Counted from the first letter of the stretch, positions 18,649 through 35,083 are shown. The stretch is 39,289 bases of DNA from Gammaproteobacteria bacterium (GCA_030613605.1 JAUWLO010000001.1:1-39289), one strand, 5' to 3'. Numbers and translations: made by a program. Notes: generated from the letters alone by a model not told the origin.

Positions 18649-19743
18649 TCAGTTAATCGCTATCCTTTTTATTTCTTTCACAACTCCGCCAGGATTTTCA
18701 GAATAAGCACCAAGAACCTGCTGCACTCCATTTTGGTTCATATAAGCCATTACAGACTGTACGAGAGGGTATTGATTGCTAATATTTTGTGAGACTGCCC
18801 TCACAGTATTTTTTTCATCTGTGTTTCCATACTTTTGTAAGAAACTCAATGCAAGTAAGCTACCTGCTGCCTCGGTAATAGATTCACCATATACCCTGCC
18901 CATTCTCTGTGCATCATCCTCTCCTAGTGATGTTACCAACTCCCCGGTAAGGCGAAGCGTCGGCTGATGGGTAGTTAAATGTATAATTTCAGTAAAAGGG
19001 GAAATCAATGATGTGGGCCCGTGGATCACGAAAATTGTGCTGCCTATCGGTTTGTGATAAACATCATCAATAATGTAATTAATCGCTCTCTCAACAGGCG
19101 CGACATTTACTAATCCTGGCTGGATCTGTATGCCCTCTCCATTTACACCGTTAACCCTATAGACAAGGTAGGTATGCTTACCTACTAATCCCCTGTATTC
19201 TTTGGTATCTACAAATGACTTGGTGTTATGTTTTGGCAGCAAACTCCAGTCAATATTAACTTCCATCAATCCAGAAACCTGGTTGTATAAGTACTCCTGA
19301 GCAAATTTAGAATATGACAAGAGTCTGTTACTGTGAATGGATGAGTCACACACGCCATAGTGCTGATACGTCCATACAATCCGATTAGTTTTTTTCCAAC
19401 GTATACCCTGATTGGCTAGCACTTTCTTCAATAATGCGATCGGTCTCTGGTAGTTACTTTGTTCTACCCTGTTGGCAGGAAGAACAGTTTCCTTATGTAA
19501 TGCACAATATTTCTGCATTAGTGTGAGTTCATCTATTAGTGGGCCTAGCCCCTCCTGAAAGGAAAACGAGAGCCAGTTTCTATCAGGGGTATTGTTCAGA
19601 TGGATATTGCCAAGTGCGTATTTTGGTATCAATGATACTGCAGCCGTACTTGCGAGCAAATACGACAGGAATTTTCGTCGAGTAAGCTTCTCTGACAAGG
19701 ACCCCTCCTCTTCCTGCATATAAGGTGTTTCGGTAATATCCAC
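18649..19743 (-). CDS. Hypothetical protein with twin-arginine (Tat) signal
   Basis: 364 aa. LTRRKFLSYLLASTAAVSL is Tat-signal-like. The rest has no motif I recognise. The start is either GTG 19743 or ATG 19719. Confidence 0.5.
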   Translation of the reverse strand: MDITETPYMQEEEGSLSEKLTRRKFLSYLLASTAAVSLIPKYALGNIHLNNTPDRNWLSFSFQEGLGPLIDELTLMQKYCALHKETVLPANRVEQSNYQRPIALLKKVLANQGIRWKKTNRIVWTYQHYGVCDSSIHSNRLLSYSKFAQEYLYNQVSGLMEVNIDWSLLPKHNTKSFVDTKEYRGLVGKHTYLVYRVNGVNGEGIQIQPGLVNVAPVERAINYIIDDVYHKPIGSTIFVIHGPTSLISPFTEIIHLTTHQPTLRLTGELVTSLGEDDAQRMGRVYGESITEAAGSLLALSFLQKYGNTDEKNTVRAVSQNISNQYPLVQSVMAYMNQNGVQQVLGAYSENPGGVVKEIKRIAIN

Positions 19744-21672: not shown

Positions 21673-22680
21673 GTGGACACTAAAAACCCTATCCCTCTGA
21701 TTTCCATTATTATCCCTAACTTTAATGGGGCGAGTACTCTGCGCCAGTGTCTCGGGGCGGTAACATCGCTTAAGGATGAGTGTTTCGAGGTAATCGTTGT
21801 GGATGATGGGTCTCACGACAATTCTGTGGAGATCATCAAAGAGTTTCCCTGCCGATTAATTCAACTAGAGCAGCAGAGTGGTGCCTCAAGGGCACGCAAT
21901 GTGGGAGCCGGAAGCAGCCACGGTGATATTCTTTTTTTTACCGATGCAGATTGCCTGGTTCAAGCAAATACCCTGAGTGTAATCCGGCAAACAATGGCCG
22001 TGAATAACCCAAATGTTATTGTCGGTGGTACCTATACAACCCAGCCCGGGGATAATCGGTTTTTTAGCGCCTTTCAATCGGTGTTTATCAATTTCTCTGA
22101 GACCAAACAACTTAAATCACCCGATTACCTTGCCGGCCATGCACTGGCCATCGATGCAAACACCTTTCGCCAAAGTGAGGGGTTTGCTCAGGATTTTCTC
22201 CCCATACTGGAAGACGTCGAATTCAGTCATCGACTGCGACGGATGGGCAGGCAATTAATCATTGAACCACGTTTTTTGGTTCAGCACATTTTCAATTATT
22301 CCCTCATGGATTCATTCCGTAATGCACTGTGCAAGACCAAGTACTGGGTCGCCTACTCTCTGAATCACCGGGATTTATTGTCAGATTCAGGGACTGCCTC
22401 TCACGAACTTAAAATGAATGTTGTGTGTTTTTATATCTCTATCCTGTCCCTTTACATGCTCCTTGGGCTCGATGTGGGCGGTGCATTATTTGGGCTTGCC
22501 ATGCTTACGATGATTAACCTTACAGTGAACAGGAAGCTTTTCCGGGCCTTTTATGATGCAAATGGATCATTGTTTACCCTCCGCGCCTCTTTATACTATT
22601 TATTAGCTTACCCACTTCCCGTCGGGGCTGGCGCTGTTGCTGGAATCACATACTTTATTAGAACTAAAACGAAGGATTAA
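21673..22680 (+). CDS. Family 2 glycosyltransferase with C-terminal transmembrane segments
   Basis: 335 aa with ISIIIPNFNG, VIVVDDGSHD and FFTDADC (DXD-type) motifs. Two to three hydrophobic helices occupy the last roughly 100 aa, as in polyprenyl-phosphate glycosyltransferases (ArnC/GtrB type). GTG start. Confidence 0.75.
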   Translation: MDTKNPIPLISIIIPNFNGASTLRQCLGAVTSLKDECFEVIVVDDGSHDNSVEIIKEFPCRLIQLEQQSGASRARNVGAGSSHGDILFFTDADCLVQANTLSVIRQTMAVNNPNVIVGGTYTTQPGDNRFFSAFQSVFINFSETKQLKSPDYLAGHALAIDANTFRQSEGFAQDFLPILEDVEFSHRLRRMGRQLIIEPRFLVQHIFNYSLMDSFRNALCKTKYWVAYSLNHRDLLSDSGTASHELKMNVVCFYISILSLYMLLGLDVGGALFGLAMLTMINLTVNRKLFRAFYDANGSLFTLRASLYYLLAYPLPVGAGAVAGITYFIRTKTKD

Positions 22681-22712
22681 CCGGAAAGGATCAAAAGTAA
22701 TACCTGATAACC

Positions 22713-23816
22713 ATGCAAATGTATTCTCCATTCCGCCACGCCCCCGCTCTATTCTGGAAACACAAGCCCATACACTTGACCTTTTTTGTGACACGCCGCT
22801 GTAATGCCAGGTGCCCCTATTGTTTTTACCTCCAGAGCCAATCGCCTGAGTGTGATAACCCTTTAGAGAGTCCAGAAAATGAGTTGTCGCTAGAAGAAAT
22901 CCGGAAATTAGCACCGTCCTTTGGGCGTTTACTCTGGCTTGCCTTTTCTGGTGGAGAAATCTTTCTTCGCAAAGACCTGGTCCAGATTAGTCAGATTTTT
23001 TATGAACACAACAAACCGAGCATTATGCTCTATCCAACCAATGGCCTGATGCCAACTCTGATCAGAAACCAGATAGAACAAATCCTTGCTCATACTCCAA
23101 AGAGTGTCGTGGTTGTTAAATTATCTCTGGACGGTCTAAATGAACGTCACGATGAACTGCGCAATACGCCTCACAGCTTTGAGAAAACCCTAAAGACCTA
23201 TGAATTACTCAGCCCTCTACTTGAGCAATATCCTAATTTTGAACTTGGCGTAAATACCGTTTTTTGCTCCGATAACCAGAACCAGATGGATGAGATTATC
23301 GATTTTGTCGAAACATTAGAGCATGTGAATACTCATACTATTTCCATGATCCGAGGATCTCTCAAAGATACACATTTTCAGGAAAACATTGATTACGATA
23401 AGTATGCGCAGGCAGTGGATCGTCTAGCCATTAATATGAAAGGCTCACCGTCCAATCGCTATCGTTTTAAGGGTGCGGGATTGAAGGCAGCGCAAGATGT
23501 TATACAGCGACGTATTATTCATCGTACCCTGGTGGAACAAAAACGTCAGATACCTTGTTACGCAGGTCGTACTAATTTGGTAATGACAGAGGTTGGTGAG
23601 ATTTATCCCTGCGAATTATTAACAGATAGTTTTGGTAACGTGAGGGATCATGATTACGATATTGAACAAGTAGTTAACACCAGCCAGGCAAAAAATAGTA
23701 TTGCCGATATCGAGTCGGAGTCCTGCTTTTGCACACATGAGTGCAATCTAATGACAAATATTCTCCTCAACCCAAGACTTTTACCTTCCCTGGCTCGGGA
23801 ATATAGCGCGCTGTAG
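22713..23816 (+). CDS. Radical SAM enzyme with Cys-rich C-terminal (SPASM/twitch-like) region
   Basis: 367 aa. The motif CNARCPYC (CX3CX2C) is preceded by FFVTRR. A SGGEIFL glycine-rich SAM motif is present. C-terminal cysteines are CYAGR..(15)..C and CFCTHEC. Confidence 0.8.
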   Translation: MQMYSPFRHAPALFWKHKPIHLTFFVTRRCNARCPYCFYLQSQSPECDNPLESPENELSLEEIRKLAPSFGRLLWLAFSGGEIFLRKDLVQISQIFYEHNKPSIMLYPTNGLMPTLIRNQIEQILAHTPKSVVVVKLSLDGLNERHDELRNTPHSFEKTLKTYELLSPLLEQYPNFELGVNTVFCSDNQNQMDEIIDFVETLEHVNTHTISMIRGSLKDTHFQENIDYDKYAQAVDRLAINMKGSPSNRYRFKGAGLKAAQDVIQRRIIHRTLVEQKRQIPCYAGRTNLVMTEVGEIYPCELLTDSFGNVRDHDYDIEQVVNTSQAKNSIADIESESCFCTHECNLMTNILLNPRLLPSLAREYSAL

Positions 23817-23844
23817 TCTAGAATGAATAATCCGGAAAACCTAA

Positions 23845-25323
23845 TCAGGAAGAAGAATTCAGGCTTGATGGTACCGGAGTACCAGGTTTCTGAAACAGGC
23901 CTTTTTTCGCCCATACCCAAAACAGTGTTCTAATCCCACTCAGTGCCAGCCGACAATCATCCAGACTTCGTAACTGTAACAATCGCCGCATAAGAAATGA
24001 GGGGCGTGAATAAAAACGCTTAAAGGCAAGTTGCCGCAGCGTGTGAATCTGTTCCCTGCTCATGGTGTGGGGAGTAAAAGCGGCTCCCTGATAGGTATAG
24101 TTACTCAAATCTTTAGACACCGTTCCATATTTTTCCAGATTGTCGTAAAGATGGGTTCCCGGGAATGCCGTCAGTGCATGGAAATTGGCTAAATCCGGAT
24201 TGAGTTCAATGGCAAACTCAATGGTTTTCAAGCCATCCTCAAATGTCTCGCCAGGAATTCCAAATAGAAAGGGTGTGCTGACTCTAAGCCCTACTTCCTT
24301 GGCTGCCTTAACAGCCTTACGCGTTTGCTCCAGGGTAATACCTTTGCGTAAGGTGTTTAGGTTTTTCTGTACACCACTCTCTGCACCGAAAAGAATGGCC
24401 CAACACCCTGCTTCTTTCATGGCACGCAATAAGGGTTTATCTACCTGGTTTACGCAGGACGAGGCAAACCAGGTGAAATCCAGTCCTTCTGATTTAATTG
24501 CCTTTGCCAGAGTCATCGCCCGGTCGTAGTCAGCAGCAAAGGTATCATCAATAAACTTTATTTCTCGGTAACCTTGATCCAGACACGCCCGTATTTCACT
24601 CAATACATTCTCGACACTGCGGTATCGAATTCCACGCTTACCACTTTTTCTGTTTTTATCCGTCTGGGAGCAAAAGATACAGCGCCGATTACAGCCTCGT
24701 GCTGTGATCATTACGGCGACCGGTTTACGTCGATAGGTTGCAGGTGGTGGGGTGTAATCATCGATATCACCTAGAAGGTCTCTTGCTGGCAGCGGTAGTG
24801 CGTCCAGGTCTTCGATTAAAGGCCGAGCCTGATTTTCTATAATTTCGTTATTTTCTCTAAAAATAATTCCTTGTACGTCGCGTAGTGACAAACCGGCCTC
24901 AAGGTGATTCACCATTTCAGTAACCGTCACTTCTCCCTCACCTGTTACTACGGCATCAATACTACTGGTATTCTCCTCTAAACATTGTCGTTGTTTTGCT
25001 ATTGGGAAGGGGCCACCAACAGCGATAAACACTGAGGGATATAAACGTTTAATGTCATTGGCAGTGCTTACGGCTTTATTCCAGCCGAATGTGGTTGAAT
25101 AGATTCCGACAAAAGCAGGGTCAAATTGAGCTAGACTCTGAATGAGTTCGGATTGTGTCATAAAGGCCCCATTGTAGAATTTCACCTCGTGGCCCGCATT
25201 TTGCAAACATGCAGCAACATATAGCGTACCCAGTGGTTGCCAGTAATTGATCTGAAAACCGGCAGTCTTGGTGGGAAATAATTCTTCCGGTAACCAGGAA
25301 GGTATGACAAGGGCGCATTTCAT
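23845..25323 (-). CDS. B12-binding-domain radical SAM enzyme (class B)
   Basis: 492 aa. The N-terminal Rossmann-like B12-binding-type segment (ALVIPSW...GHEVKFYN...FVGIYSTTF...IAVGGPFP) is followed by ARGCNRRCIFC (CX3CX2C). A TAAGGAG RBS precedes the ATG. Confidence 0.85.
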   Translation of the reverse strand: MKCALVIPSWLPEELFPTKTAGFQINYWQPLGTLYVAACLQNAGHEVKFYNGAFMTQSELIQSLAQFDPAFVGIYSTTFGWNKAVSTANDIKRLYPSVFIAVGGPFPIAKQRQCLEENTSSIDAVVTGEGEVTVTEMVNHLEAGLSLRDVQGIIFRENNEIIENQARPLIEDLDALPLPARDLLGDIDDYTPPPATYRRKPVAVMITARGCNRRCIFCSQTDKNRKSGKRGIRYRSVENVLSEIRACLDQGYREIKFIDDTFAADYDRAMTLAKAIKSEGLDFTWFASSCVNQVDKPLLRAMKEAGCWAILFGAESGVQKNLNTLRKGITLEQTRKAVKAAKEVGLRVSTPFLFGIPGETFEDGLKTIEFAIELNPDLANFHALTAFPGTHLYDNLEKYGTVSKDLSNYTYQGAAFTPHTMSREQIHTLRQLAFKRFYSRPSFLMRRLLQLRSLDDCRLALSGIRTLFWVWAKKGLFQKPGTPVPSSLNSSS

Positions 25324-25334
25324 CCTGTTTCTCC

Positions 25335-26756
25335 TTAAGAGTCTCCTGAAAACATTGTCGTTGAAACCATTCCATTCATTTGCATTTGTTTTCGCTGAAT
25401 TTCTTCTGCCACATCGAAACCCGCTTTCATAGCGTGGTCCATATTGTAATACTTAAACATCCCTCCTCGACCTGCCGTGTACAGATTTTCAAACTTTTCC
25501 AGATATTGATTAATTGTATGGCAGTGGTCACTGTAACCGATCTCAAATAAAGGATAGGCATTTGGAATTCGCATCACCACCTGGTCAATAATATCCTTCT
25601 GATCGATGATGCCGAGGTCATGCAGAATTTTGCTGGTACTGGTAATCAACTCAAAATCTTCACTATTCCACGTTTTGTCACCACGAAAACAGAAATACTC
25701 AATCACCAGAAGTGATTTTCCGGGTGGCGCCATACTGTCACTCCAATTGGTTGGCTCGTGAATACGACCAAATGGAATGGATTTTTCCGGTACATAAATC
25801 CAGGTGTGGCCAGTAACGCGAGGTCGATTGACCATAAGGGTGACCGTCACAAGATCACGGCTGCGTAATTGTGAAGCGGCCTTCAATACATGCTCTGGTG
25901 GTTTTGGTCTTAAGGCGTTGACAAGAACAGGGAGTGGAATGGTGGAAACAAAATGGCTTGCGGATAATTGACCTGGTCGATCATTACATAGTATTTCCAC
26001 ACTTTGAATTCGCGAGTCTGAGTGATTAACAAAACGCACACGTGATTGTGTATATATGGTGTGTTTTTTACATATATCCGCAGCCAGATTGTCGGTAATT
26101 TGGCCTATACCTTTTCGTGGATAAAGGAAACGGTCTGCCAGTGTGGTGAATTTCTTTTTACTGGTAGGCAGTATGGCTTTTGCAATGGCCTTCCCTAAAG
26201 ATAATCCTTGAATTCGCTGTTCTACCCACCGTTGATCAATGTGCTGGCATTCTATGCCCCAAACCTTTTCACTATAGTCACGAAAGTAGATATTGAACAT
26301 AGTGCGGCCAAAATTGGCCACCACCCAGTCTTCAAGTGATGCTGGTATTTCGGTAGTGAATTGTGCGCGAATGCGCTCATAAATATAATCCGCCAATATC
26401 TTTGCCGACATTTTTGGCCCAAAAGCGGATAATGCCTTGAAAGGTTTTAGAGGGTAATCAAAATAACGATTTCGGAGTAGAATCTTACTTGAGCGGGGAA
26501 CGACAAGACAATCCTCGTTGAGGATAGTTCGTACAAAAGTATCCAGTTCCTGGTCATTGGTAACAAACCGATGGCCGCCCAAATCAAAACGAAAACCATT
26601 ATGTTCAATGGTGCGTGCCAGACCACCTATATTTTTACCTGCTTCTATAACAGTCACAGGGAAATTAGCTTTGGTTAGCGCGTGGGCGGTACTCAGACCA
26701 GCTAATCCTCCGCCCATAACCAATGCATGGTTAATCGTATTTACTCTGTCATCCAA
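25335..26756 (-). CDS. FAD/NAD(P)-binding oxidoreductase (amine oxidase / protoporphyrinogen oxidase / UDP-galactopyranose mutase superfamily)
   Basis: 473 aa with the dinucleotide fold VMGGGLAGLSTAHAL...VIEAG..IGG, plus FDLGGHRF and FLYPRKGIGQI motifs. The TTG start is preceded by GAGGTGA and lies 9 nt after the stop of the upstream small ORF. Confidence 0.75.
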   Translation of the reverse strand: MDDRVNTINHALVMGGGLAGLSTAHALTKANFPVTVIEAGKNIGGLARTIEHNGFRFDLGGHRFVTNDQELDTFVRTILNEDCLVVPRSSKILLRNRYFDYPLKPFKALSAFGPKMSAKILADYIYERIRAQFTTEIPASLEDWVVANFGRTMFNIYFRDYSEKVWGIECQHIDQRWVEQRIQGLSLGKAIAKAILPTSKKKFTTLADRFLYPRKGIGQITDNLAADICKKHTIYTQSRVRFVNHSDSRIQSVEILCNDRPGQLSASHFVSTIPLPVLVNALRPKPPEHVLKAASQLRSRDLVTVTLMVNRPRVTGHTWIYVPEKSIPFGRIHEPTNWSDSMAPPGKSLLVIEYFCFRGDKTWNSEDFELITSTSKILHDLGIIDQKDIIDQVVMRIPNAYPLFEIGYSDHCHTINQYLEKFENLYTAGRGGMFKYYNMDHAMKAGFDVAEEIQRKQMQMNGMVSTTMFSGDS

Positions 26757-26765
26757 AACTCACCT

Positions 26766-26972
26766 CTACTCGGTTAAGTCTTTATAGTAATCCTGTAGCT
26801 CCTCGCTCACACCCTCTGGTGCCGAGCCCTCGGATCCAGCCCCATAACCACCTGCATCAGGAGCTTCAAAGTAACCCGGTTCTACACCCGTACCATAGGA
26901 TATTGTCCAGCCAATAAAAAACGATAACATGCAGCTAACAATAATGATTGCTGACCATTGATAGATTTTCAA
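26766..26972 (-). CDS. Small single-pass membrane protein with acidic C-terminal tail (paralogue 1)
   Basis: 68 aa. The TTG start is preceded by a strong GGGAGGGAG SD. It has one N-terminal TM helix and a Gly/Glu-rich tail ending VSEELQDYYKDLTE. It is a paralogue of 27036-27227. Confidence 0.55.
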   Translation of the reverse strand: MKIYQWSAIIIVSCMLSFFIGWTISYGTGVEPGYFEAPDAGGYGAGSEGSAPEGVSEELQDYYKDLTE

Positions 26973-27035
26973 TGTTCTCCCTCCCTATTCTTGTTAATAA
27001 AGGGACAGTGTTGCTCAACAATGCAGTCCACGGCC

Positions 27036-27227
27036 TCATTCTGCCTCTTCGGACAATTGTTCGTAATATTTTTCCATATCTTCACTGACATCCGATTTCA
27101 GGCCTATAGCCTCGCTCTTATCTCCACCAATCATCCCAACCTCTATCATGGGCGGTAAGCTGTAACCCATTAGAAATCCCATAAACACTGTCACCACCAG
27201 AATGACAACCCAGAGTCCGTTTTTCAT
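27036..27227 (-). CDS. Small single-pass membrane protein with acidic C-terminal tail (paralogue 2)
   Basis: 63 aa from ATG 27227 (the track uses TTG 27242). It has the same architecture as paralogue 1, and the tail ends VSEDMEKYYEQLSEEAE. Confidence 0.5.
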   Translation of the reverse strand: MKNGLWVVILVVTVFMGFLMGYSLPPMIEVGMIGGDKSEAIGLKSDVSEDMEKYYEQLSEEAE

Positions 27228-27331
27228 TGTATAGGCCCCCAAATATTACGATCACAATCAGCTAGTTTTTCATAAATAAGCGTTATTACATTTATGATTT
27301 GATCGTTATTTTTAAAGATCATTTTTCTAAC

Positions 27332-27577
27332 CTACGCCTTTTCTATATCCCATAAGAACTGGCCGCCTTCCTTGCTTTGTGAAACGATTTCATCGCCTGT
27401 AATATCGCACATGGCAGCAATAGATTCACCAGAGGAAGGGTTATCAAATATCACCTGTAAATGATCACCAGATTCAATTTTTGATAATGCCTTTTTGGTA
27501 TAGATTTGTGGGTGTGGACATACATAACCTTTTACATCCAGACGATAGTGTCCTTCAGATTGTTTTTCAAAATTCAT
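27332..27577 (-). CDS. TusA-family sulfur carrier protein
   Basis: 81 aa. LDVKGYVCPHPQIYTKKAL carries the CP-X-P active-site motif. The DHLQVIFDNPSS segment follows, as in TusA/YeeD. Confidence 0.8.
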   Translation of the reverse strand: MNFEKQSEGHYRLDVKGYVCPHPQIYTKKALSKIESGDHLQVIFDNPSSGESIAAMCDITGDEIVSQSKEGGQFLWDIEKA

Positions 27578-27611
27578 GATACATTCCTCCTATGATTAAC
27601 TGGACTTGTTA

Positions 27612-29054
27612 TCACATGCCGCACGATTCGAATTGTTTTGCCATTTTTCTTTCAGTCCACCAGTTAAAGAATTTAACACCAATATAAGCGCCACCAATCA
27701 TACCTAACCCAAACAACCAGCCAGAAACATCACCTTGTGAGACCCTGACAAAAAATGCGCCGACATTACATCCTAATCCAAGTCGAGAGCCGATACCCAT
27801 GAGTGCACCACCAATAATTGCCCAGGTTGCCAATTCTAAGGTCGGCTTTTTGAATTTGAACTCATTGTGCAGCAAGGCCATTACTGCAGCACCGCCAATA
27901 AGTGCTAATGACATCCAGTCTGCAGGATTCAGGGCAGGGTTGGGTATGCCGTTAACAAAACCAAAATAGATGTTATCCATATTCTCTGCGCCCATTTTAT
28001 TAAACGCCCAGCCAACCCATTGGGCCTCCTGTGTAGTCACATACCAATAGCCTGGATCGAATACAGTACCGTTAACAGATAGACCAAAGTCATGCCCCAT
28101 TCTCTCTAGCAACGAACCCGCATTTCGCACACCAAATTTTACGCGAAGTCCCTGGGTCACTAGCATCTGTAAGCCGCAAAAGATGCCCAGAATCAAACCG
28201 GCTATTGCGGTTCGTTTTGAGGAAGAAATCATGGCCCAATATCCTTTCAAATCATCCTTAAAACTAAACCCTGATTGCTTTTTCAGAAGTTTTCTCTTGA
28301 AACCACCTCTTGACCAAAAGACATAGACGATAATCAACAAAATGGTGCCAGGCACAAGAACACCAATGAGTACATTGGCAAAAAAAGCGCCTGCTACAGA
28401 ATCATTGGAAAGACCGAGAAGGCTGGCATAAGTCATCACCGGTTGATCCCATACATAACCCGCAAGATACTGGTCTACCCATCCATCGCCTGCATTTATT
28501 GTTGATGGTAATCCCTTTGCTACGGCTGATTCATGCCAGGATTCCGGCACCAGTTTATTGGTCCATCCAGCCACATCGGCAAACAAGGCCTGGGTAACAC
28601 TGATGGATAAGATAACAATGAGCGCAACGCCATTACCCTCACCCGTTTTATATAATGAGCCGGAGGCGCAACCACCGGCAAAGACCATGCCCACACCGAA
28701 GATAAAGCCGGCAATAACTGCATGAACACTTGTGGGAGCCGCATGAAATGTACTCAATCCAGTAGCACTAATAAAAGCACTGACAAAAGCAAACAGCGCT
28801 GTGGCCACCATGACACCAACAACCATTCGCGGGACGCCTACAGCAAACAGATCACGAAACGCTGATGAAAAACAGAAACGACCATATTGCAGACACATAC
28901 CATAGATAAACCCAAACCATAGATAAACCGACAGATAAATATAATATTCGTTGTAGGCAAATGTGGATATGCTAATCATGGCGAAGAACCCAACAATACC
29001 AAAAGCCCACATTCTTTTTTTTCTTAGGTCATTCTCTAATGCTGTAGCATCCAT
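27612..29054 (-). CDS. YeeE/YedE-family sulfur (thiosulfate) transport membrane protein, long form
   Basis: 480 aa and polytopic. The conserved Cys loops are FAGGCASGSLYK and LGLGCNVGAF, one in each half. It is about 130 aa longer than the roughly 350-aa YeeE I remember. Confidence 0.8.
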   Translation of the reverse strand: MDATALENDLRKKRMWAFGIVGFFAMISISTFAYNEYYIYLSVYLWFGFIYGMCLQYGRFCFSSAFRDLFAVGVPRMVVGVMVATALFAFVSAFISATGLSTFHAAPTSVHAVIAGFIFGVGMVFAGGCASGSLYKTGEGNGVALIVILSISVTQALFADVAGWTNKLVPESWHESAVAKGLPSTINAGDGWVDQYLAGYVWDQPVMTYASLLGLSNDSVAGAFFANVLIGVLVPGTILLIIVYVFWSRGGFKRKLLKKQSGFSFKDDLKGYWAMISSSKRTAIAGLILGIFCGLQMLVTQGLRVKFGVRNAGSLLERMGHDFGLSVNGTVFDPGYWYVTTQEAQWVGWAFNKMGAENMDNIYFGFVNGIPNPALNPADWMSLALIGGAAVMALLHNEFKFKKPTLELATWAIIGGALMGIGSRLGLGCNVGAFFVRVSQGDVSGWLFGLGMIGGAYIGVKFFNWWTERKMAKQFESCGM

Positions 29055-29075
29055 TGTGTTCTCCTCCCATCTGCA

Positions 29076-30953
29076 TCAAAGGATTGTATTAATTGCCTGA
29101 CTTCTGACAGGTAAATAAATATCAACGATTGTTTTGTAACGATATATTTCTTCCTGTGTTACGAATTGACGGGCATGTTTATATGCAGAGAGTCGTTCTC
29201 TTATATTGCCCGGAATCTCCTGTTTTTTACTATTCGATATAACAGCAATAATTCTTTCTGTATTTTCTTTATTGTATTGATAATATGTTGGTAATTTATA
29301 TTCCCAGGTAAATCTCAGAGGAGACGACTGCATATCATTTAACTTTGTTTGAGGGTCTCTTCCTCTTTCATCTCTATAGATGACCTGTTTCTGACTATAT
29401 AAATCAAATAAGGGGATACTCATAACTGGATTCACAGATGATCGGGTTTGTGGAAGCGTAATAACCTCTACTGTTGATAGTTCCATGGAATCAATATATT
29501 TACTGGCGGCCTGGATATTGCTTGCGCTGGTGCTTCCAAGAAAAGAGGAAAATCCTGATACTGAGAAGATGCTTGCTGATAGCAGGATGCATAAGCTCAA
29601 GTAACGCCGAATCCTTGCTTCCTTAATGTTAGCTAACGCGTAACCTGCCATTAGGGATAACATTGGGAATGCGATCAAAACATACCTTATTCTTCTAATA
29701 TCAATTATTAATATCAATAGGATCATCCAGCCAATAATTAAATATTTTAAATCCCTCTTCTTGTAGGCAAGATATAGTGAAACAACGGCGGCCAGAGAGA
29801 CAAAAGGATGGGATTGAAAAAGGAATGTCGATAGGTGGCTTTCTGACCATCCGCTTAGTGCAGGCCACTGATATCCGATCAACAATTCTATTTGGTTAAC
29901 AAATACTTCATGCTTCCAAAGTAACAATAGGCCCAGAAAAGCAGAAAGAGAGGCCAGGACAATAATATTTTGTTTTAGCATCATTTTCCTGGCATCAGGA
30001 TTGACTGTGATTTTGAAAAGAACCAGTGAAATCACGGGTAAAATACTCAGCATCAACCAGGTTGAGTATTTTGTCAGCATTGCCAGGACAATACACACCG
30101 CAGCGAGTACTGGTAAAATCGAATTCTGTCGTGTTAATGCCCGGGTATAGACGAATATAGCAAGGGAAAGAAAAAACATGGCTGGCACATCTACTAACAT
30201 CAATGGTACCTGTGTGTGGAGATAAGGGATTGCCAATAACATCAGCGCTCCATACAGACCTACACGCTCACTCCACAGGAGCTTACCGATAAAAAAGGTC
30301 ATGATGACCGTGCCGGAAAAAAAGAGCGTATTAATGACCTGTATGCCTGCTCGACTTTCCCCAGAAACTTGAAATATTAATCCATAAATAAACGGGACAA
30401 GAGGTAAGTCAGTCCAGGCCATGATTCCACGCCCCCACTCGCTAATAAAATAGCCAATGCCGTACATCTCCACATATTTTGCCTGGGTGAAGTATCGAGC
30501 GGCATCTACAATCACCTCAGGGCTACTCCAGTGCAAAATGCCAATGGAATACGATATTAAAAACAGGACGGGTACGAAATAGTGACGTGAAAGTTTAATG
30601 GTAGATATATACCATGCGATCATTAAACCTATAATCAGGGTGAATGAGATGGCCAGTAGGTCTGACTCAGAGAATATCCATTGCCAACTGGTTAGACGAT
30701 TGTCATCAATAGCACGTAACGATAATAAAGCAAAAAAAACACACAGGGATGATAAATAGATCAGTATTGCTTCTGGACAGCGTGCGATCGATGAAATTCT
30801 CAGGCAAGCCTGTTGAAAATAGGAATGAAACCCTACCGTTGTATTACCAATAAGAACCTGTTCCCCATTTTCACAAGGATCGATCCGATTGTTAACACCT
30901 TTACCAGGAGATAACTTTATCGCATTGCTCGATCTTGTCGACAAGCTCATCAT
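29076..30953 (-). CDS. GT-C fold membrane glycosyltransferase (ArnT/PMT, GT39/GT83-like)
   Basis: 625 aa with at least 10 hydrophobic helices in the first roughly 480 aa. A first-loop motif, VDAARYF, resembles the D-x-x-RY motif of ArnT/PMT enzymes. The C-terminal soluble domain is about 140 aa. AT-rich by eye. Confidence 0.55.
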   Translation of the reverse strand: MMSLSTRSSNAIKLSPGKGVNNRIDPCENGEQVLIGNTTVGFHSYFQQACLRISSIARCPEAILIYLSSLCVFFALLSLRAIDDNRLTSWQWIFSESDLLAISFTLIIGLMIAWYISTIKLSRHYFVPVLFLISYSIGILHWSSPEVIVDAARYFTQAKYVEMYGIGYFISEWGRGIMAWTDLPLVPFIYGLIFQVSGESRAGIQVINTLFFSGTVIMTFFIGKLLWSERVGLYGALMLLAIPYLHTQVPLMLVDVPAMFFLSLAIFVYTRALTRQNSILPVLAAVCIVLAMLTKYSTWLMLSILPVISLVLFKITVNPDARKMMLKQNIIVLASLSAFLGLLLLWKHEVFVNQIELLIGYQWPALSGWSESHLSTFLFQSHPFVSLAAVVSLYLAYKKRDLKYLIIGWMILLILIIDIRRIRYVLIAFPMLSLMAGYALANIKEARIRRYLSLCILLSASIFSVSGFSSFLGSTSASNIQAASKYIDSMELSTVEVITLPQTRSSVNPVMSIPLFDLYSQKQVIYRDERGRDPQTKLNDMQSSPLRFTWEYKLPTYYQYNKENTERIIAVISNSKKQEIPGNIRERLSAYKHARQFVTQEEIYRYKTIVDIYLPVRSQAINTIL

Positions 30954-31071
30954 AAGATGTTTCCTTGTTGGTGAGATCTACAGTCTCGACTTTATTATCA
31001 TTTTTTTGTTCCTCGATGAGCTTCGTGGCTTTTTCATCGGGACCATCATTGAAGATATACAGTATTTTCAT
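30901..31071 (-). CDS. Unannotated 56-aa ORF with DsrH/TusB-like C-terminus
   Basis: Hand translation: MKILYIFNDGPDEKATKLIEEQKNDNKVETVDLTNKETSYDELVDKIEQCDKVISW*. An AAGGGA SD lies 8 nt upstream of ATG 31071. The ORF is below the 60-aa track cutoff and overlaps the GT-C ORF start by 53 nt. Its C-terminus resembles the ...DY.DFV.L......MAW end of TusB/DsrH (from memory). Confidence 0.45.
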   Translation of the reverse strand: MKILYIFNDGPDEKATKLIEEQKNDNKVETVDLTNKETSYDELVDKIEQCDKVISW

Positions 31072-31092
31072 GGGTAGATTCCCTTGCTTCTT

Positions 31093-31395
31093 TTACAGGG
31101 ATATGACTTTATCCGCTTCATTATTCATCATCGCGTTGTTAAATTGACTGCCCAGGACGATTTCCTTTGATATCCCTTCCGTATTCACACCTTGATCGCT
31201 AGCACTGTGCTGGCAAAGGCTCATCACAACGTTATCTGCTGTACATAGCTGAGTAAATTCGGGATAAGCCAATAATCGAGTACCGGAGTCCATGGCGAAG
31301 ATAGATACGTCATGTCCCTTTGCGCTAGCTGCCTGAGTGATACCAACAACATGGTCTAGATGGCGGTCTGTTGTTATTATTATCCCTAACTTCAC
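31093..31395 (-). CDS. DsrE/TusD-family protein (short form)
   Basis: 100 aa. The GTG start is preceded by GAGGGGGA. KLGIIITT...GHDVSIFAMDSG...VVMSLCQHSA fits the DsrE fold pattern, including the conserved-position cysteine. Confidence 0.6.
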   Translation of the reverse strand: MKLGIIITTDRHLDHVVGITQAASAKGHDVSIFAMDSGTRLLAYPEFTQLCTADNVVMSLCQHSASDQGVNTEGISKEIVLGSQFNNAMMNNEADKVISL

Positions 31396-31465
31396 GCTGT
31401 ATCCCCCTCAAGCCAATTTATTAGTTTTGCTAGTAATAGGAATACACGCATTACTGCATATCAGG

Positions 31466-31485
31466 AATGATGCATATGCATCATT
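31466..31485. promoter_or_regulatory. Perfect 20-bp palindrome AATGATGCATATGCATCATT (candidate operator)
   Basis: Read directly. It lies 71-90 nt upstream of the dsrE-like GTG start (31395), inside the 247-bp gap that precedes the long minus-strand operon. Confidence 0.4.
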
Positions 31486-31642
31486 TTGGGGTCGCATCAG
31501 AAAAGGACAGTAATATTAACTCTCATACATGATGAGACACTACGCGAGACTATCAGAACGGGTTTTTTTGGAATGGCGTCAAAAAACGATATAGGTGACT
31601 GAATCACCCACAGGAAAATACTACGCAACTAAATAAGATCAA

Positions 31643-31915
31643 CTAATAGGGCAAAATATGGTCGTAAGACAATAACTCCCTGGCCATTGTGGCTGTTGGT
31701 ATATAGGCGGACTCAGTACAACCCTCAATATTTGAATAGGTCTTAATATCCATTTCATCAAGGGTCTCAATATTCAATTCATTGTCCTTTGTCTTAACCA
31801 GATCTCTGTCGAGTAAAAAAACATCGACACTATCATCCATCAAGGTTAAGCCGATGGACATGCGTATCGCTTCATCTTGTCTATCCTTAATGATAACCGC
31901 TATTTTTTTACTCAT
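31643..31915 (-). CDS. Small DsrE/DsrF/DsrH-fold-like protein
   Basis: 90 aa. KIAVIIKDRQDEAIRMSIGLTLMDDSVDVFLLDRDL resembles the beta1-alpha1-beta2 start of the DsrE/F/H superfamily. No conserved Cys sits at the DsrE position. This is a weak call. Confidence 0.35.
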   Translation of the reverse strand: MSKKIAVIIKDRQDEAIRMSIGLTLMDDSVDVFLLDRDLVKTKDNELNIETLDEMDIKTYSNIEGCTESAYIPTATMARELLSYDHILPY

Positions 31916-32814: not shown

Positions 32815-32955
32815 ACAGACATGAAAAAACCCACCCAGAGTTAACATAAGCAGGTTTTTCCAAACGCTTTAGCAGTATTTATAAAGCACCCTGCAATCTG
32901 AAATCAAATCGGTGCTCTAGTTAAAATATAGGTGTTCTTTGGAGAAATACAAGGC
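32815..32955 (+). repeat. Dispersed intergenic repeat, copy B (long form)
   Basis: Aligns by eye over about 140 bp with 35355-35499 (roughly four-fifths identical, one indel block). Its first roughly 90 bp aligns with 18535-18630. Confidence 0.8.
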
Positions 32956-33125: not shown

Positions 33126-33569
33126 ATGGAAAAAAGGCATGGGAGCATGAGCAGCAGATCACCTCGCTTTGGAGTATTGCACCAGAGCAATATCACCATG
33201 TTCTTTTTCAGCCTGGCGCTAAGTTTCATGTTGCTTGCGGGGGGGCTATTTGGCTCGGAGGCGCGCGCCGAATACGGTGATATCGTCCTCAATAATTATT
33301 CCGACAAGAATGGGATTCGCCCAGTAATTTTTCCTCACTGGTTTCACCGCATGCGTTACGCATGCAAATCTTGCCATAGCGACATTGGATTTCCCTTTAA
33401 GGCTGGTGGCAGTAAGGTCAACATGCTCAATATTATCAGTGGTGAATACTGCGGCGCCTGCCACAATGGCCAAATTGCCTGGTCGGTGGAAAACTGTGAC
33501 CTGTGTCATTCTGCCCTGCCGAACACGCCTACGCAGGTGCACAACAGTGTGTTAAGAGCACCGAAATAA
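33126..33569 (+). CDS. c7-type triheme cytochrome c domain protein
   Basis: 147 aa with a signal-like hydrophobic N-terminus and three CXXCH motifs (CKSCH, CGACH, CDLCH). They sit in the pattern V.FPH..H...C..CH..(19)..G..CG.CH.G..A....C..CH. The start is uncertain (33126, 33147 or 33198). Confidence 0.75.
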   Translation: MEKRHGSMSSRSPRFGVLHQSNITMFFFSLALSFMLLAGGLFGSEARAEYGDIVLNNYSDKNGIRPVIFPHWFHRMRYACKSCHSDIGFPFKAGGSKVNMLNIISGEYCGACHNGQIAWSVENCDLCHSALPNTPTQVHNSVLRAPK

Positions 33570-33592
33570 TTCAATTATGCCGATCTATTAAT

Positions 33593-34180
33593 ATGAATAA
33601 ACGCCAGATTACAATTACTTCACTTACCTTGTTCGCAGTCGCCCTGACCGCACTGATGGGTGTAGGTGTAGTCAATGCGGCGGGTAATCCTAATCCTTTT
33701 AACCGACTCTTTGTGCCACCCAAAGAGCGTGACACAGCCTTAAAGAATGACAAAATTCACGACCCCTCCGTACCTGGACTGAAGCTGTTACAGCAGCCCA
33801 AAGAAGCCTTTGCACCACTGCCTGGCAGTATAGGTGGTAACTATATTAACTGGGTGCAAGCTCTTAACAAGGGCCTCATCAAGCCTCATTTCGATCACCT
33901 TGATGCCAGCAAAGAGGCCCTGTCCATGGATCTGGTGATTGTCATGGAGGTTAAGGGCAGCATGCCCAATGTAGCCTTCCCTCATAAAGAACACACGGTC
34001 TGGTTAGAATGTACCAATTGTCATGATTCCATCTTTAAGCCATTAAAAGGCGCTAACCCCATGAGCATGGCGGAGATTATGTTGGGACAAAAGTGTGGCG
34101 TGTGTCATGGTTCTGTGGCATTTCCAGTCACAGAATGCCGTCGTTGTCATACGGAATCCAAGAAAACTGCGAAAAAGTAA
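33593..34180 (+). CDS. c7-type triheme cytochrome c domain protein (paralogue)
   Basis: 195 aa from ATG 33593 (signal peptide MNKRQITITSLTLFAVALTALMGVGVVNA). CTNCH, CGVCH and CRRCH are spaced as in the upstream gene. The track ORF start at 33503 overlaps the previous gene and was not used. Confidence 0.75.
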   Translation: MNKRQITITSLTLFAVALTALMGVGVVNAAGNPNPFNRLFVPPKERDTALKNDKIHDPSVPGLKLLQQPKEAFAPLPGSIGGNYINWVQALNKGLIKPHFDHLDASKEALSMDLVIVMEVKGSMPNVAFPHKEHTVWLECTNCHDSIFKPLKGANPMSMAEIMLGQKCGVCHGSVAFPVTECRRCHTESKKTAKK

Positions 34181-34186
34181 CTCCCT

Positions 34187-35083
34187 TTGCGACCTCAACG
34201 AATTGGCTTTTACTTCCTGCTATTTGGTTTATTGCTCTTTGCCCCACTGAGTATGGCTGATGAGCCTCGTCGCATAATCACGGCCGATGCTAGCAAATTA
34301 GGGGTGGGTCAAAATATTGGTTTTGTGGAAAAACTCATCCATGAATCTGCCGCCGCTAAACAAATCTTGAAAAGTGACAATCCAGAGGCTCGCGCATTTC
34401 AGGAAAAAGCCATCATGCATTTGGATGAAGCAAGGGCAGCTGAGAAACAAGGCAATGCCGAGGCCGTTGCCAAGGCCCTGAACAAGGCTAAGCTAGCCAT
34501 TTTTATGGGCATGCGACTTGTGGGCGGCAAGGTCGTAAAAGATAAAAAGCAGGAGAACTACAATAAAAAGCGGCATAGTCTGGAATCCTTATTGGCTGCT
34601 CATAAGCGCATACGTAAAGAAAATGAGTCAGGACAGGATTCCAGGGATGCAGAAGTCGAAACTCACACTCAGAAAAGGATGCAAGAGGCACAAGCGTATT
34701 ATGACAAGGGAGAACTGATCAAGGCCGGGGATGTGCTGAATAACGCCTATCTCAGTCTTAAACTTTCCCTGGTTAAATTACGTGATGGAAAAACGTTGGT
34801 ACGCAGCCTTCACTTTGAAACCAGGGAAGATGAATACCGATATGAATTAAGGCGTAACGACACCCACAATATGCTCATCAATACCGTGCTGAAAAAGAAG
34901 CGCGAAGATCCACGTCTTGGCAAACTCATGGATATCCCGCTCAAGGAAGCAGACAAGCTTCGTACCGAGGCAGAACAACAGGCAGGCAGCGAGAATTATG
35001 AGGCCGCCATAAAAACCCTGGAAGAGTCCACAAAACACATTATCCGCGCCATTCGCATGGCAGGTATCTTTATTCCTGGCTGA
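34187..35083 (+). CDS. Secreted all-helical hypothetical protein
   Basis: 298 aa. The TTG start lies 6 nt after the cytochrome stop. The signal peptide ends LSMA-DEP. The protein is rich in K/E/A helices, and I recognise no motif. Confidence 0.5.
   Translation: MRPQRIGFYFLLFGLLLFAPLSMADEPRRIITADASKLGVGQNIGFVEKLIHESAAAKQILKSDNPEARAFQEKAIMHLDEARAAEKQGNAEAVAKALNKAKLAIFMGMRLVGGKVVKDKKQENYNKKRHSLESLLAAHKRIRKENESGQDSRDAEVETHTQKRMQEAQAYYDKGELIKAGDVLNNAYLSLKLSLVKLRDGKTLVRSLHFETREDEYRYELRRNDTHNMLINTVLKKKREDPRLGKLMDIPLKEADKLRTEAEQQAGSENYEAAIKTLEESTKHIIRAIRMAGIFIPG

Follow-up and report, generated by a model that had tools for sequence, protein, structure and literature searches.

In the parts of PMC9751629 and PMC9676032 that deal with it, the YTD cluster is made up of a YedE-related transporter, a TusA protein, a protein resembling DsrE and a pair of conserved hypothetical proteins, and its proposal in 2020 as a marker of sulfur disproportionation is cited there. 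In 2026, Plum-Jensen et al. recast the DsrE-like protein, along with the two hypothetical ones, as "DsrEFH type II", the genes of which are present in 985 genomes (PMC13293266; PMC13047784); sulfur transfer in vitro from TusA to Cys67 of DsrE, and from there to DsrC, was described for cable-bacterial proteins only (PMC13293266). Here we describe a related locus, contained in a 39,289-nucleotide (nt) stretch of DNA from a gammaproteobacterial metagenome-assembled genome (MAG) (JAUWLO010000001.1; the whole stretch is called the window, and positions are counted from its first letter), with its core at 21673-31915. Its sulfur genes are, judged by their sequence relationships, a rearranged YTD set having a divergent DsrE subfamily, and they are interleaved with genes for glycosyltransferases, a flavoprotein, radical SAM (rSAM) enzymes and small exported proteins carrying a GGYG motif (Table 1). 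This assignment follows from the identity of YeeE and TusA, the reach of the DsrE profile and a profile match of the small protein p90. A sequence-only reading of the same DNA had regarded the sulfur genes as lacking a recognisable pathway, a statement that has to be abandoned, since YeeE, TusA, the DsrE-like protein and two small proteins make up the published YTD cluster. The entire cluster may represent an extended, horizontally spread form of YTD (YeeE-TusA-DsrEFH type II), a view that we favour with confidence just short of even.

The sulfur genes were compared with those of L069, a textbook YTD locus devoid of glycosylation genes and with the order YeeE-TusA-DsrE(103 aa)-88 aa-64 aa-rhodanese. 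The window YeeE is 47-52% identical to the L069 transporter, and the two TusA proteins share 58% identity. Cysteines 61, 129 and 429 of YeeE, invariant in 24/24 orthologues, are equivalent to C22, C91 and C293 of StYeeE, the conserved pathway cysteines, which are essential in E. coli YeeE (PMC7449682). The DsrE-like protein has an invariant Cys61 (C-x-HSA) in 26 homologues, and its AlphaFold2 (AF2) model (pLDDT 96) gave as top Foldseek matches YchN, DsrE/F-like proteins, DsrE (2hy5_A, TMq 0.77) and TusD (2d1p_A). A search of 1.84 billion representatives with the DsrE-like profile yielded 329 clusters; the profile reaches P0386, the DsrE of L069 (E 4e-10), as well as P0334 (E 4e-18), which is located directly after TusA in locus L073. 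The p90 profile, built from 11 orthologues, matches the 88-aa conserved hypothetical protein (chp) of L069 with an hhalign probability of 93.8% (E 1.7e-7), as fits the DsrF-like partner (Chp1), and gave no signal with the DsrE profile or with PDB sequences.

Shared with the YTD cluster are thus a transporter of the YedE type that keeps all three pathway cysteines, the CPxP cysteine of TusA, a DsrE-fold protein of about 100 aa with a conserved cysteine, a chp homologue of about 90 aa, a third, very small partner and, frequently, a rhodanese nearby. The two differ in several respects: the canonical cluster consists of five contiguous genes, yeeE-tusA-dsrE-chp-chp, whereas the order here is p90-dsrE-p56-(GT-C)-yeeE-tusA; the third subunit is not demonstrably DsrH-like; GT-C, the GGYG proteins, the flavoprotein, two rSAM enzymes and GT2 have been added; and the host is a gammaproteobacterial MAG. 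The window contains no dsrC gene, and no dsr, sox or hdr genes elsewhere. A selenium (YedE/YedF) reading, suggested by the best NCBIfam matches of YeeE and TusA, was set aside, as the scores are well below the cut-offs (140 vs 350 and 44 vs 79 bits, respectively) and neither selD nor any other selenium gene is nearby. Another arrangement in which sulfur-relay genes (TusA/DsrE3) share a locus with two dedicated rSAM proteins is that of the sHdr-LbpA clusters, where, according to the sections of PMC6067878 concerned with them, these maturases build an accessory component of the pathway. Following the same sections, the rSAM proteins there are lipoate-synthase-like and no glycosyltransferases are included, whereas the enzymes of the window are of the B12 and SPASM types and Hdr or LbpA genes are missing.

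The 56-aa protein p56 had been called DsrH-like in the sequence-only reading, a label that found no confirmation. Its gene, found in 15/21 loci, neighbours the DsrE-like gene in every locus that carries it, and both position and size fit a DsrH-like partner (Chp2); its AF2 model (pLDDT 85) is a minimal beta-alpha-beta-alpha-beta unit. However, hhalign comparisons of the p56 profile with the 64-aa chp of L069 and with the DsrE profile gave nothing significant, a hidden Markov model (HMM) search of PDB sequences revealed no significant link to DsrH/TusB, and Foldseek with the AF2 model retrieved only generic Rossmann fragments (best E 0.11).

The linkage between the sulfur genes and the other members of the cluster was analysed by scanning one genome per species with the B12-binding rSAM enzyme (B12-rSAM). 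The scan gave 67 loci, 38 of which are orthologue loci at 55-70% identity; all window proteins were searched in these loci by tblastn, and counts were restricted to loci with enough flank. Loci L036-L067, containing B12-rSAM relatives of at most 41% identity, were left out of the counts, having no synteny and belonging to other, multi-paralogue clusters. The FAD flavoprotein gene is adjacent to B12-rSAM in 29/31 loci; YeeE is near it in 23 of 25, GT-C in 22 of 24 and the DsrE-like gene in 15 of 21. GT2 and, within 10 kb, the SPASM-type rSAM are each found in 13/24 loci, and p90, also within 10 kb, in 8/21. The proposed linkage of the sulfur genes with GT-C, flavoprotein, rSAM and GT2 genes is therefore borne out; absence of synteny had been named in advance as the finding that would speak against it, and the neighbourhood comparison shows synteny across phyla instead.

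The cluster is present in Gammaproteobacteria, Rhodospirillales, Desulfobulbus and many Nitrospirota, and the same interleaved order is repeated on dozens of independent contigs, which represent at least four bacterial lineages and have protein identities of 36-90%. For B12-rSAM, the orthologues of four bacterial lineages share 60-70% identity, those of archaea 55%. Gammaproteobacterial MAGs, including Acidiferrobacterales, repeat the order LuxR-p90-DsrE-p56-GT-C-YeeE-TusA-sm-sm-FAD-B12, followed by SPASM/GT2 on the opposite strand and then by the rhodanese. The regulator orthologue has the same position in the gammaproteobacterial loci L002, L005, L006 and L018 and on the metagenome contig L072; tandem-rhodanese orthologues (67-76% identity) likewise keep their place in L002, L005, L006 and L018, and the SPASM gene is convergent with B12-rSAM in the gammaproteobacterial loci and L072. 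The latter locus, to which a search begun from a DsrE homologue led, carries the same full cluster. In a Rhodospirillales MAG the part from YeeE to GT2 is found on a short contig of 6.3 kb, a Desulfobulbus MAG has the cluster with a universal stress protein (Usp) gene inserted, and many Nitrospirota/Thermodesulfovibrionales MAGs have both Usp and a periplasmic rhodanese inserted. In Nitrospirota, this single-domain rhodanese lies between p56 and GT-C and replaces the tandem enzyme. The Usp orthologue is located between TusA and FAD in Nitrospirota/Desulfobulbus loci and before GT2 in L026 and L035. The conserved unit extends to the secreted tandem rhodanese and Usp and, in Gammaproteobacteria, also to the PAS-LuxR regulator.

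Three groups of loci were distinguished: group A comprises Gammaproteobacteria and Desulfobulbus; group B, Nitrospirota with a 476-aa YeeE and TusA; and group C, Nitrospirota in which YeeE has 360 aa and TusA gives way to a Cys-less TusA-like protein that ends in CC. The TusA motif GYVCPHPQ, containing the CPxP cysteine, is invariant in groups A and B. Between groups B and C, identities are 78% for B12-rSAM, 66% for FAD, 51% for GT-C and 62% for DsrE, as within groups, whereas the YeeE proteins share only 33% identity and another protein stands in for TusA; the YeeE slot was therefore refilled by another paralogue, the rest being co-inherited. Pairwise identities of FAD, GT-C and B12-rSAM correlate with each other (Spearman 0.74-0.84), while their correlation with YeeE is 0.11-0.21. 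The TusA-like protein, seen in L004, L010, L012 and L015 (e.g., L012:8361-8591), has 76 aa (PF01206, 21 bits), lacks the CPxP cysteine loop and ends in CCV or CGCA; the YeeE paralogue of about 360 aa that is paired with it shares only about 31-33% identity with the YeeE proteins of groups A and B.

A third architecture was found in L074/L075 (66% GC) through a match of the DsrE-like profile (E 1.5e-21), with the order TusA-ThiF/MoeB-like E1-JAB/MPN-DsrE-like-p61-GT-C-GGYG::YeeE. The open reading frames (ORFs) of the DsrE-like protein, p61 and GT-C overlap as they do in the window; DsrE-like, p56 and GT-C thus constitute the invariant core of the system. On these metagenome contigs (L074:743-4536 and L075) the genes for TusA, the ThiF/MoeB-like E1 and the JAB/MPN (JAMM) protein are directly upstream of the triad, and no gene for a ThiS/MoaD-like carrier was seen in the short contig.

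These data bear on another alternative, namely that an operon for thiosulfate/sulfur uptake came to lie beside a polysaccharide locus unrelated to it, by chance or neutrally. It is true that the modules are also found apart, YTD alone in L069 and the glyco genes alone in L024, L033, L029 and L030, and that the YeeE identities are uncorrelated with those of the glyco genes. However, the modules are interleaved, GT-C lying between dsrE/p56 and yeeE, and the sm genes and FAD downstream of tusA, in an order common to at least four lineages; the module boundary is crossed by an ORF overlap, since the 3' end of p56 overlaps the start of GT-C by 53 nt; the transporter slot is retained despite different paralogues; and the DsrE-p56-GT-C triad reappears in a third context. 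With its synteny so conserved, juxtaposition by chance is largely refuted and appears extremely improbable. The association of sulfur and glyco genes is, on this comparative evidence, a selected one, beyond chance.

The small proteins sm1 and sm2 are paralogous, each with a hydrophobic anchor at the N-terminus and an acidic tail behind it; a single N-terminal transmembrane (TM) segment is predicted in sm1, and sm2 contains the motif GVEPGYFEAPDAGGYG and has DYYKDLTE at its C-terminal end. The family holds a conserved slot after TusA. In Nitrospirota of group B, this slot is occupied by proteins with the same anchor and long (A/P)AGGYG(S/A)AP repeats, so that GGYG proteins share their position in groups A and B. 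In L074/L075, a signal peptide and seven SGGYGSSAPAAPAATSSD repeats, rich in Ser/Thr/Ala/Pro, come right after GT-C, and in L075 the frame of the GGYG repeats runs without a stop into the N-terminus of YeeE (...PPPAGLMFIVSAMLCGAALGWVLQRGRFCMNSAFRD). If the upstream start is used, the L075 gene would be a Rosetta-stone fusion, in which the GGYG module is tied to YeeE on the periplasmic face of the latter. The earlier suggestion that the small proteins are targets of tailoring thus gains support from this conserved exported family beside the cluster and from its in-frame run into YeeE. Neither sm1 and sm2 nor the homologues with GGYG repeats have an NCBIfam match (E up to 5) or one in Pfam/NCBIfam (E up to 0.01). 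In the YTD locus L069, a tiny ORF (L069:5833-5910; MKAPMVVIWTVILAFIGFSVWYANFS) lies between tusA and dsrE; it is similar to the anchor with which the sm/GGYG proteins begin, but is tailless.

Among the putative glycan enzymes, GT-C matches PMT_2 (39.8 bits) and PMT (31.2 bits) and has about ten or more hydrophobic segments, with no NCBIfam match. R80, D83 and N85, just past TM1 in the first outward loop, do not vary among 22 orthologues, and neither do E146, D150, R153, D182, D255 and K295. PMT-type GT-C enzymes O-glycosylate exported repeat sequences rich in Ser/Thr/Ala/Pro. GT2 contains a DXD-type DAD motif (..FFTDADCLV..) and hydrophobic segments at residues 246-281. The pair resembles ArnC/ArnT, GtrB/GtrC and DPM synthase/PMT in that a membrane-anchored GT2 is combined with a multi-span PMT_2/ArnT-type GT-C, acidic residues are conserved in the first outward loop of the latter, and the candidate acceptors are, in some variants, exported tails rich in Ser/Thr/Ala/Pro. 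Unlike these systems, no score here attains the equivalog level (GT2 vs ArnC NF007986, 24.2 bits with a cut-off of 529), a flippase gene is missing, and two rSAM enzymes and a flavoprotein resembling UDP-galactopyranose mutase (UGM) are added. The flavoprotein belongs to the uncharacterised family NF005548 (PRK07208.1-4; 441.6 bits vs a cut-off of 389); its best solved relatives are UGMs of the eukaryote type (4dsg, residues 12-452, E 5.5e-19), while the UGM equivalog TIGR00031 is missed (50.2 bits vs 303.75). The sequence-only reading had named strong matches of the rSAM, flavoprotein and glycosyltransferase genes to a characterised pathway as a finding that would speak against it, and not one of these genes attains the curated threshold for a family that is characterised.

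B12-rSAM combines an N-terminal B12-binding domain, from which use of cobalamin is predicted, with a CNRRCIFC (CX3CX2C) motif. Its best NCBIfam match is HpnJ (TIGR03471, 210.9 bits vs a cut-off of 577.6) and its best PDB match is AprD4 (6fd2, E 3.6e-27). HpnI/HpnJ convert hopanoid glucosamine to the cyclitol ether, and AprD4 takes part in the 3'-deoxygenation of aminoglycosides; both HpnJ and AprD4 act on sugars, the latter as a dehydratase and not as a methylase. As in the HpnI/HpnJ pair, the enzyme of the window is accompanied by a GT2. On the other hand, a hopanoid or aminoglycoside context is missing, with no shc or hpn genes in the window, and the B12-rSAM orthologues form a subfamily of their own, with 60-70% identity across phyla. 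On this basis, a lipid head-group pathway of the HpnI/HpnJ type may be envisaged, in which GT2 glycosylates a membrane lipid and the rSAM enzymes and flavoprotein rearrange or deoxygenate the sugar, a possibility that we consider clearly unlikely; the sulfur genes would then be merely co-regulated, the lipid adapting the membrane to sulfur or polysulfide stress. Besides the HpnJ match, this pathway would agree with the weak matches of GT2 to HpnI/HpnB, with the retention of the B12-GT2-SPASM trio alone in archaea, which have no outer membrane, and with the presence of Usp in the conserved set and of envelope genes among the neighbours. Still, every score is far under the equivalog cut-off, neither hopanoid nor other lipid-backbone genes are contained in the window, and GT-C, an enzyme type that works in the periplasm with donors linked to lipids, is left unexplained, as are the overlapping DsrE-p56-GT-C triad and the GGYG repeats in frame with YeeE.

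The second rSAM enzyme, which scores 54.1 bits for Radical_SAM (cut-off 29.5) and falls short for SPASM (18.1 bits, cut-off 21.5), has a CNARCPYC motif and five C-terminal cysteines, and gives weak matches to peptide maturases and to MftC. The two best NCBIfam matches of GT2 are the MftF-like TIGR04283 (102.8 bits, cut-off 182) and MftF (81, cut-off 280), and B12-rSAM matches models of C-methyltransferases of ribosomally synthesised and post-translationally modified peptides (RiPPs; ApyD 130 bits, TIGR03975 104 bits). These matches, together with the two paralogous small proteins and their conserved GGYG and YY motifs, would fit a RiPP or mycofactocin-like product, of which sm1 and sm2 would be the precursors, modified in the cytoplasm by the rSAM enzymes and the flavin oxidase and glycosylated by GT2. 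All scores, however, are far under the cut-offs, and the mycofactocin system is missed at the equivalog level (MftF, as above; MftC 45.3 vs 265 bits). Moreover, sm1 and sm2 have a membrane anchor and are devoid of the C-terminal GVY of MftA; the anchor, the long low-complexity repeats of Nitrospirota and the in-frame join with YeeE are unlike known precursors; B12-GT2(-SPASM) genes are kept in L024, L033, L029 and L030, where no sm gene is seen; no gene for a peptidase, RiPP recognition element (RRE) or exporter is present in the window cluster; and GT-C would be without a role. A peptide product is thus regarded as very unlikely. An arsenosugar reading of GT2 was also discarded, as the TIGR04283 score is below the cut-off and arsM or arsS are missing.

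Considering the locus as a whole, two lines of genes can be recognised. One encodes a relay, formed by the secreted rhodanese, YeeE, TusA and the DsrE-fold carrier with two small partners; the other is a glycosylation line of the lipid-carrier type, formed by the membrane-anchored GT2, GT-C, the UGM-like flavoprotein and the two rSAM enzymes. The genes of the second line have the appearance of sugar and envelope enzymes, and in other genomes they are neighboured by genes of the lipopolysaccharide (LPS) core or the outer membrane. Since the arrangement is conserved across distant phyla, the cluster genes probably act together in sulfur acquisition at the envelope. We tentatively propose, at slightly less than even confidence, that the locus forms a single functional apparatus by which sulfane sulfur is captured at the envelope and imported, in which the glycosylation line decorates the GGYG proteins or the envelope. 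According to this proposal, GT2 would load a sugar on polyprenyl phosphate or a membrane lipid at the cytoplasmic side, and the flavoprotein and the two rSAM enzymes would tailor the lipid-linked sugar. After flipping, the PMT-type GT-C would move the sugar, in the periplasm, onto the GGYG tails or possibly the envelope. The decorated, membrane-tethered tails would then be placed, with the rhodanese, at the periplasmic mouth of YeeE, where they could hold or pass poorly soluble zero-valent sulfur or polysulfide. Finally, sulfur would proceed from YeeE to TusA, to Cys61 of the DsrE-like complex and on to DsrC or a similar acceptor in the cytoplasm. In this scheme, what we infer is the nature of donor and acceptor, the flow of sulfur past DsrE and any role of the rSAM enzymes.

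Several observations weigh against this proposal. p56 could not be tied to DsrH, and its designation as DsrH-like is unproven. No flippase family of the GtrA or ArnE/F type is present among the window genes or the recurrent families of the loci. The small proteins of group A have one GGYG motif only and few Ser/Thr, and no GGYG proteins are detectable in the Nitrospirota loci of group C. Moreover, the GGYG tails recall the sulfur-globule proteins of purple sulfur bacteria, which we take to be a likeness of composition only; no family model matched. Those proteins are similarly small, exported, Gly/Tyr-rich and genetically linked to sulfur metabolism, but the proteins described here have an N-terminal anchor that looks uncleaved and gave no sequence or family match in Pfam or NCBIfam, and in the window their tail is acidic and carries a single GGYG motif. 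In addition, Desulfurivibrionaceae MAGs possess GT-C-B12-GT2-FAD with no nearby sulfur genes, next to acyltransferase, porin, AsmA/YhdP and FtsX/MacB genes, and two archaeal MAGs have only B12-GT2-SPASM; hence the glyco module is able to work independently. Finally, the DsrE-like protein is only about 29% identical to the canonical YTD DsrE of L069, so that this subfamily may serve another acceptor.

The latter point is favourable to a different explanation, namely that the relay feeds an rSAM enzyme, sulfur is introduced into a lipid- or nucleotide-linked sugar, and GT-C exports the resulting thio-sugar to an acceptor in the envelope. The glyco genes, and not YeeE, are the partners with which the DsrE-like trio co-evolves, and the trio is physically coupled to GT-C by the overlapping ORFs. 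In L074/L075 the triad follows TusA-ThiF-JAB, and machinery of this type serves in sulfur activation for biosynthetic sulfur incorporation; furthermore, the SPASM/twitch rSAM has extra cysteines for an auxiliary cluster. Against it, we know of no sulfur transfer from TusA or DsrE to a radical SAM enzyme, both rSAMs fall outside the known families of sulfur-inserting enzymes (MiaB/RimO, at most 47 bits), the glyco module occurs without adjacent sulfur genes in Desulfurivibrionaceae and archaea, and no role is left for the GGYG proteins or for the in-frame repeats joined to YeeE. A sulfur-bearing glycan of this kind is therefore considered unlikely. A sulfur-carrying envelope glycoconjugate, in which sulfur from YeeE would pass via TusA and the DsrE-like protein to an rSAM enzyme, be written into the lipid-linked sugar and be installed by GT-C on the membrane-tethered GGYG proteins at the YeeE mouth, is a distinctly unlikely option.

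The genes of the locus are listed in Table 1. All ORFs listed earlier were found at their coordinates, tightly packed on the minus strand, and the described operon-like run is confirmed, no gap exceeding 89 nt from dsrE to B12-rSAM (dsrE-like/p56, 21 nt; GT-C/YeeE, 21 nt; YeeE/TusA, 34 nt; TusA/sm1, 89 nt; sm1/sm2, 63 nt; sm2/FAD, 9 nt; FAD/B12-rSAM, 11 nt). Profile-HMM matches agree with the identities previously given to DsrE, GT-C, YeeE, TusA, FAD, B12-rSAM and GT2. The gene for p90, which lies inside the core range and is part of the conserved set, was absent from the earlier description; the regulator gene ends 36 nt upstream of it. GT2 and the SPASM gene, on the plus strand, converge on the minus-strand run, with the stops of the B12-rSAM and SPASM genes 28 nt apart. 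p90, p56, sm1 and sm2 have no Pfam or NCBIfam match. A simple consensus scan for promoters and terminators gave counts equal to those of shuffled sequence and is thus uninformative on transcript boundaries; a terminator-like hairpin between p90 and dsrE (31612-31590) is not significant.

Table 1. Genes of the cluster and of its conserved surroundings in the window.
Product	Position	Strand	Length (aa)	Remarks
PAS + LuxR/GerE transcription regulator	32620-31952	-	222	GerE E 8.6e-16; weak PAS match
p90	31915-31643	-	90	homologue of YTD conserved hypothetical protein; DsrF-type-II position
DsrE-like sulfur carrier	31395-31093	-	100	PF02635 24.5 bits (cut-off 22.7)
p56	31071-30901	-	56	small beta-alpha-beta-alpha-beta protein; DsrH position
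GT-C fold glycosyltransferase (PMT_2/ArnT-like)	30953-29076	-	625	PMT_2 E 6.8e-10; PMT E 2e-7
YeeE/YedE-family sulfur transporter	29054-27612	-	480	Sulf_transp E 3e-41
TusA-family sulfur carrier	27577-27332	-	81	PF01206 63.1 bits, E 2.2e-17
sm1, signal-anchored small protein	27242-27036	-	68	acidic ..YYxxL tail
sm2, signal-anchored small protein	26972-26766	-	68	GGYG motif; acidic DYYKDL tail
FAD flavoprotein, UGM-like, PRK07208.1-4 family	26756-25335	-	473	Amino_oxidase; NF005548
Class B (B12-binding domain) radical SAM	25323-23845	-	492	PF02310 70.9 bits; PF04055 87.8 bits
Radical SAM, Cys-rich SPASM/twitch-like C-terminal region	22713-23816	+		Radical_SAM 54.1 bits
GT2 glycosyltransferase, C-terminal membrane region	21673-22680	+		PF00535 97.6 bits, E 9.6e-28
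Secreted tandem-rhodanese sulfurtransferase	21376-20366	-		divergent from GT2; Rhodanese, 2 stretches, E 1e-26
Universal stress protein (Usp)	20276-19812	-		Usp E 1.3e-24

The tandem rhodanese has an N-terminal hydrophobic signal and a CQTGTR active-site loop visible in its sequence. Adjoining Usp, a 364-aa protein (18649-19743, minus strand) has a twin-arginine-like signal (RRKFLSYLLASTAAV), no Pfam/NCBIfam match and a counterpart in none of the related loci. Beside the regulator, on the plus strand (33126-35083), are two genes for c7-type trihaem cytochromes (TIGR04257 domain), followed by one for a familyless protein of 298 aa; farther off (14597-16288, minus strand), a 563-aa multihaem cytochrome with an MtrC-like domain is encoded. 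The remainder of the window comprises RecQ, DbpA, RlmA, LpxR, AcrB/OEP and multihaem cytochromes; it has a gammaproteobacterial look, and near-identical proteins bear the label Gammaproteobacteria MAG. At 32849-32925 (minus strand), upstream of both the PAS-LuxR gene (by about 230 nt) and the best promoter-like site, there is a sub-threshold element similar to the SAM-II/SAM_alpha riboswitch (the only Rfam match; 28.2 bits vs a gathering score of 36), which covers the full length of the model and contains GAUUUGA, UUGCA and GCUAAAG. Being sub-threshold, and with no counterpart found in L002, L018 or L072, three related loci, it was not counted as part of the system.

Some features of the related loci were also recorded. 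MAGs of Nitrospirota and Desulfurivibrionaceae repeatedly encode, at less than 10 kb from the cluster, a periplasmic protein that has a C-terminal CxxCH motif and belongs to no Pfam family (L003:17000-20127, L004, L024:140-3958 and L033:19366-21423); one or two permeases of the FtsX/MacB type go with it in L003, L004 and L024, and in L003 and L004 an ABC ATPase-like ORF, with a Walker-A motif visible in the sequence, is next in line. In one Nitrospirota MAG, a gene of the TauE/SafE sulfite-exporter family (L019:5953-6675) adjoins the SPASM-GT2 pair. Elusimicrobia/Planctomycetales MAGs (L048, L052, L053, L055, L061 and L067) contain arrays of three to seven paralogous B12-domain rSAM genes; the Elusimicrobia arrays have an FAD oxidoreductase and mostly also a GT2. 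All these array enzymes are only 26-33% identical to the window B12-rSAM and represent a different kind of cluster, also uncharacterised. Three YeeE sequences (P0217, P0222 and P0227), 83-84% identical to that of the window, are labelled as Kaarinaea lacus (Nostocales cyanobacterium); they were dropped from the taxonomy, as they probably derive from contaminant contigs in the assembly of a non-axenic culture.

In the literature searched, no paper was found that joins YeeE/YedE, TusA or DsrE with a radical SAM enzyme and/or a glycosyltransferase in this way; the terms "glycosyltransferase" and "radical SAM" have 0 occurrences in the YTD/DsrEFH-II papers PMC13293266 and PMC13047784 and in the available text of PMC9751629 and PMC9676032. 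While the sulfur relay is known, its conserved fusion with GT-C, GT2, rSAM enzymes, flavoprotein and GGYG proteins appears to be undescribed in that literature. This analysis also defines uncharacterised subfamilies, i.e., B12-rSAM, the PRK07208.1-4 flavoprotein, GT-C, the 100-aa DsrE, p56 and the GGYG proteins, which are widespread in Gammaproteobacteria and Nitrospirota from sediment and groundwater.

The significance of YTD/DsrEFH type II is debated, as it has been considered a marker of sulfur disproportionation or, alternatively, of sulfur oxidation, in bacteria resembling sulfate reducers. The conserved version of YTD with glyco, rSAM and GGYG genes points to an extracytoplasmic component of sulfur acquisition. 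If sulfur does enter the glycan, the chemistry would be new. A sulfur-carrying glycoconjugate, if real, would provide a glycan-borne thiol or persulfide arm for solubilising and shuttling extracellular or periplasmic zero-valent sulfur; it would be a sulfur carrier of a previously unknown kind and would represent a new use of the Tus/Dsr relay in glycan biosynthesis.

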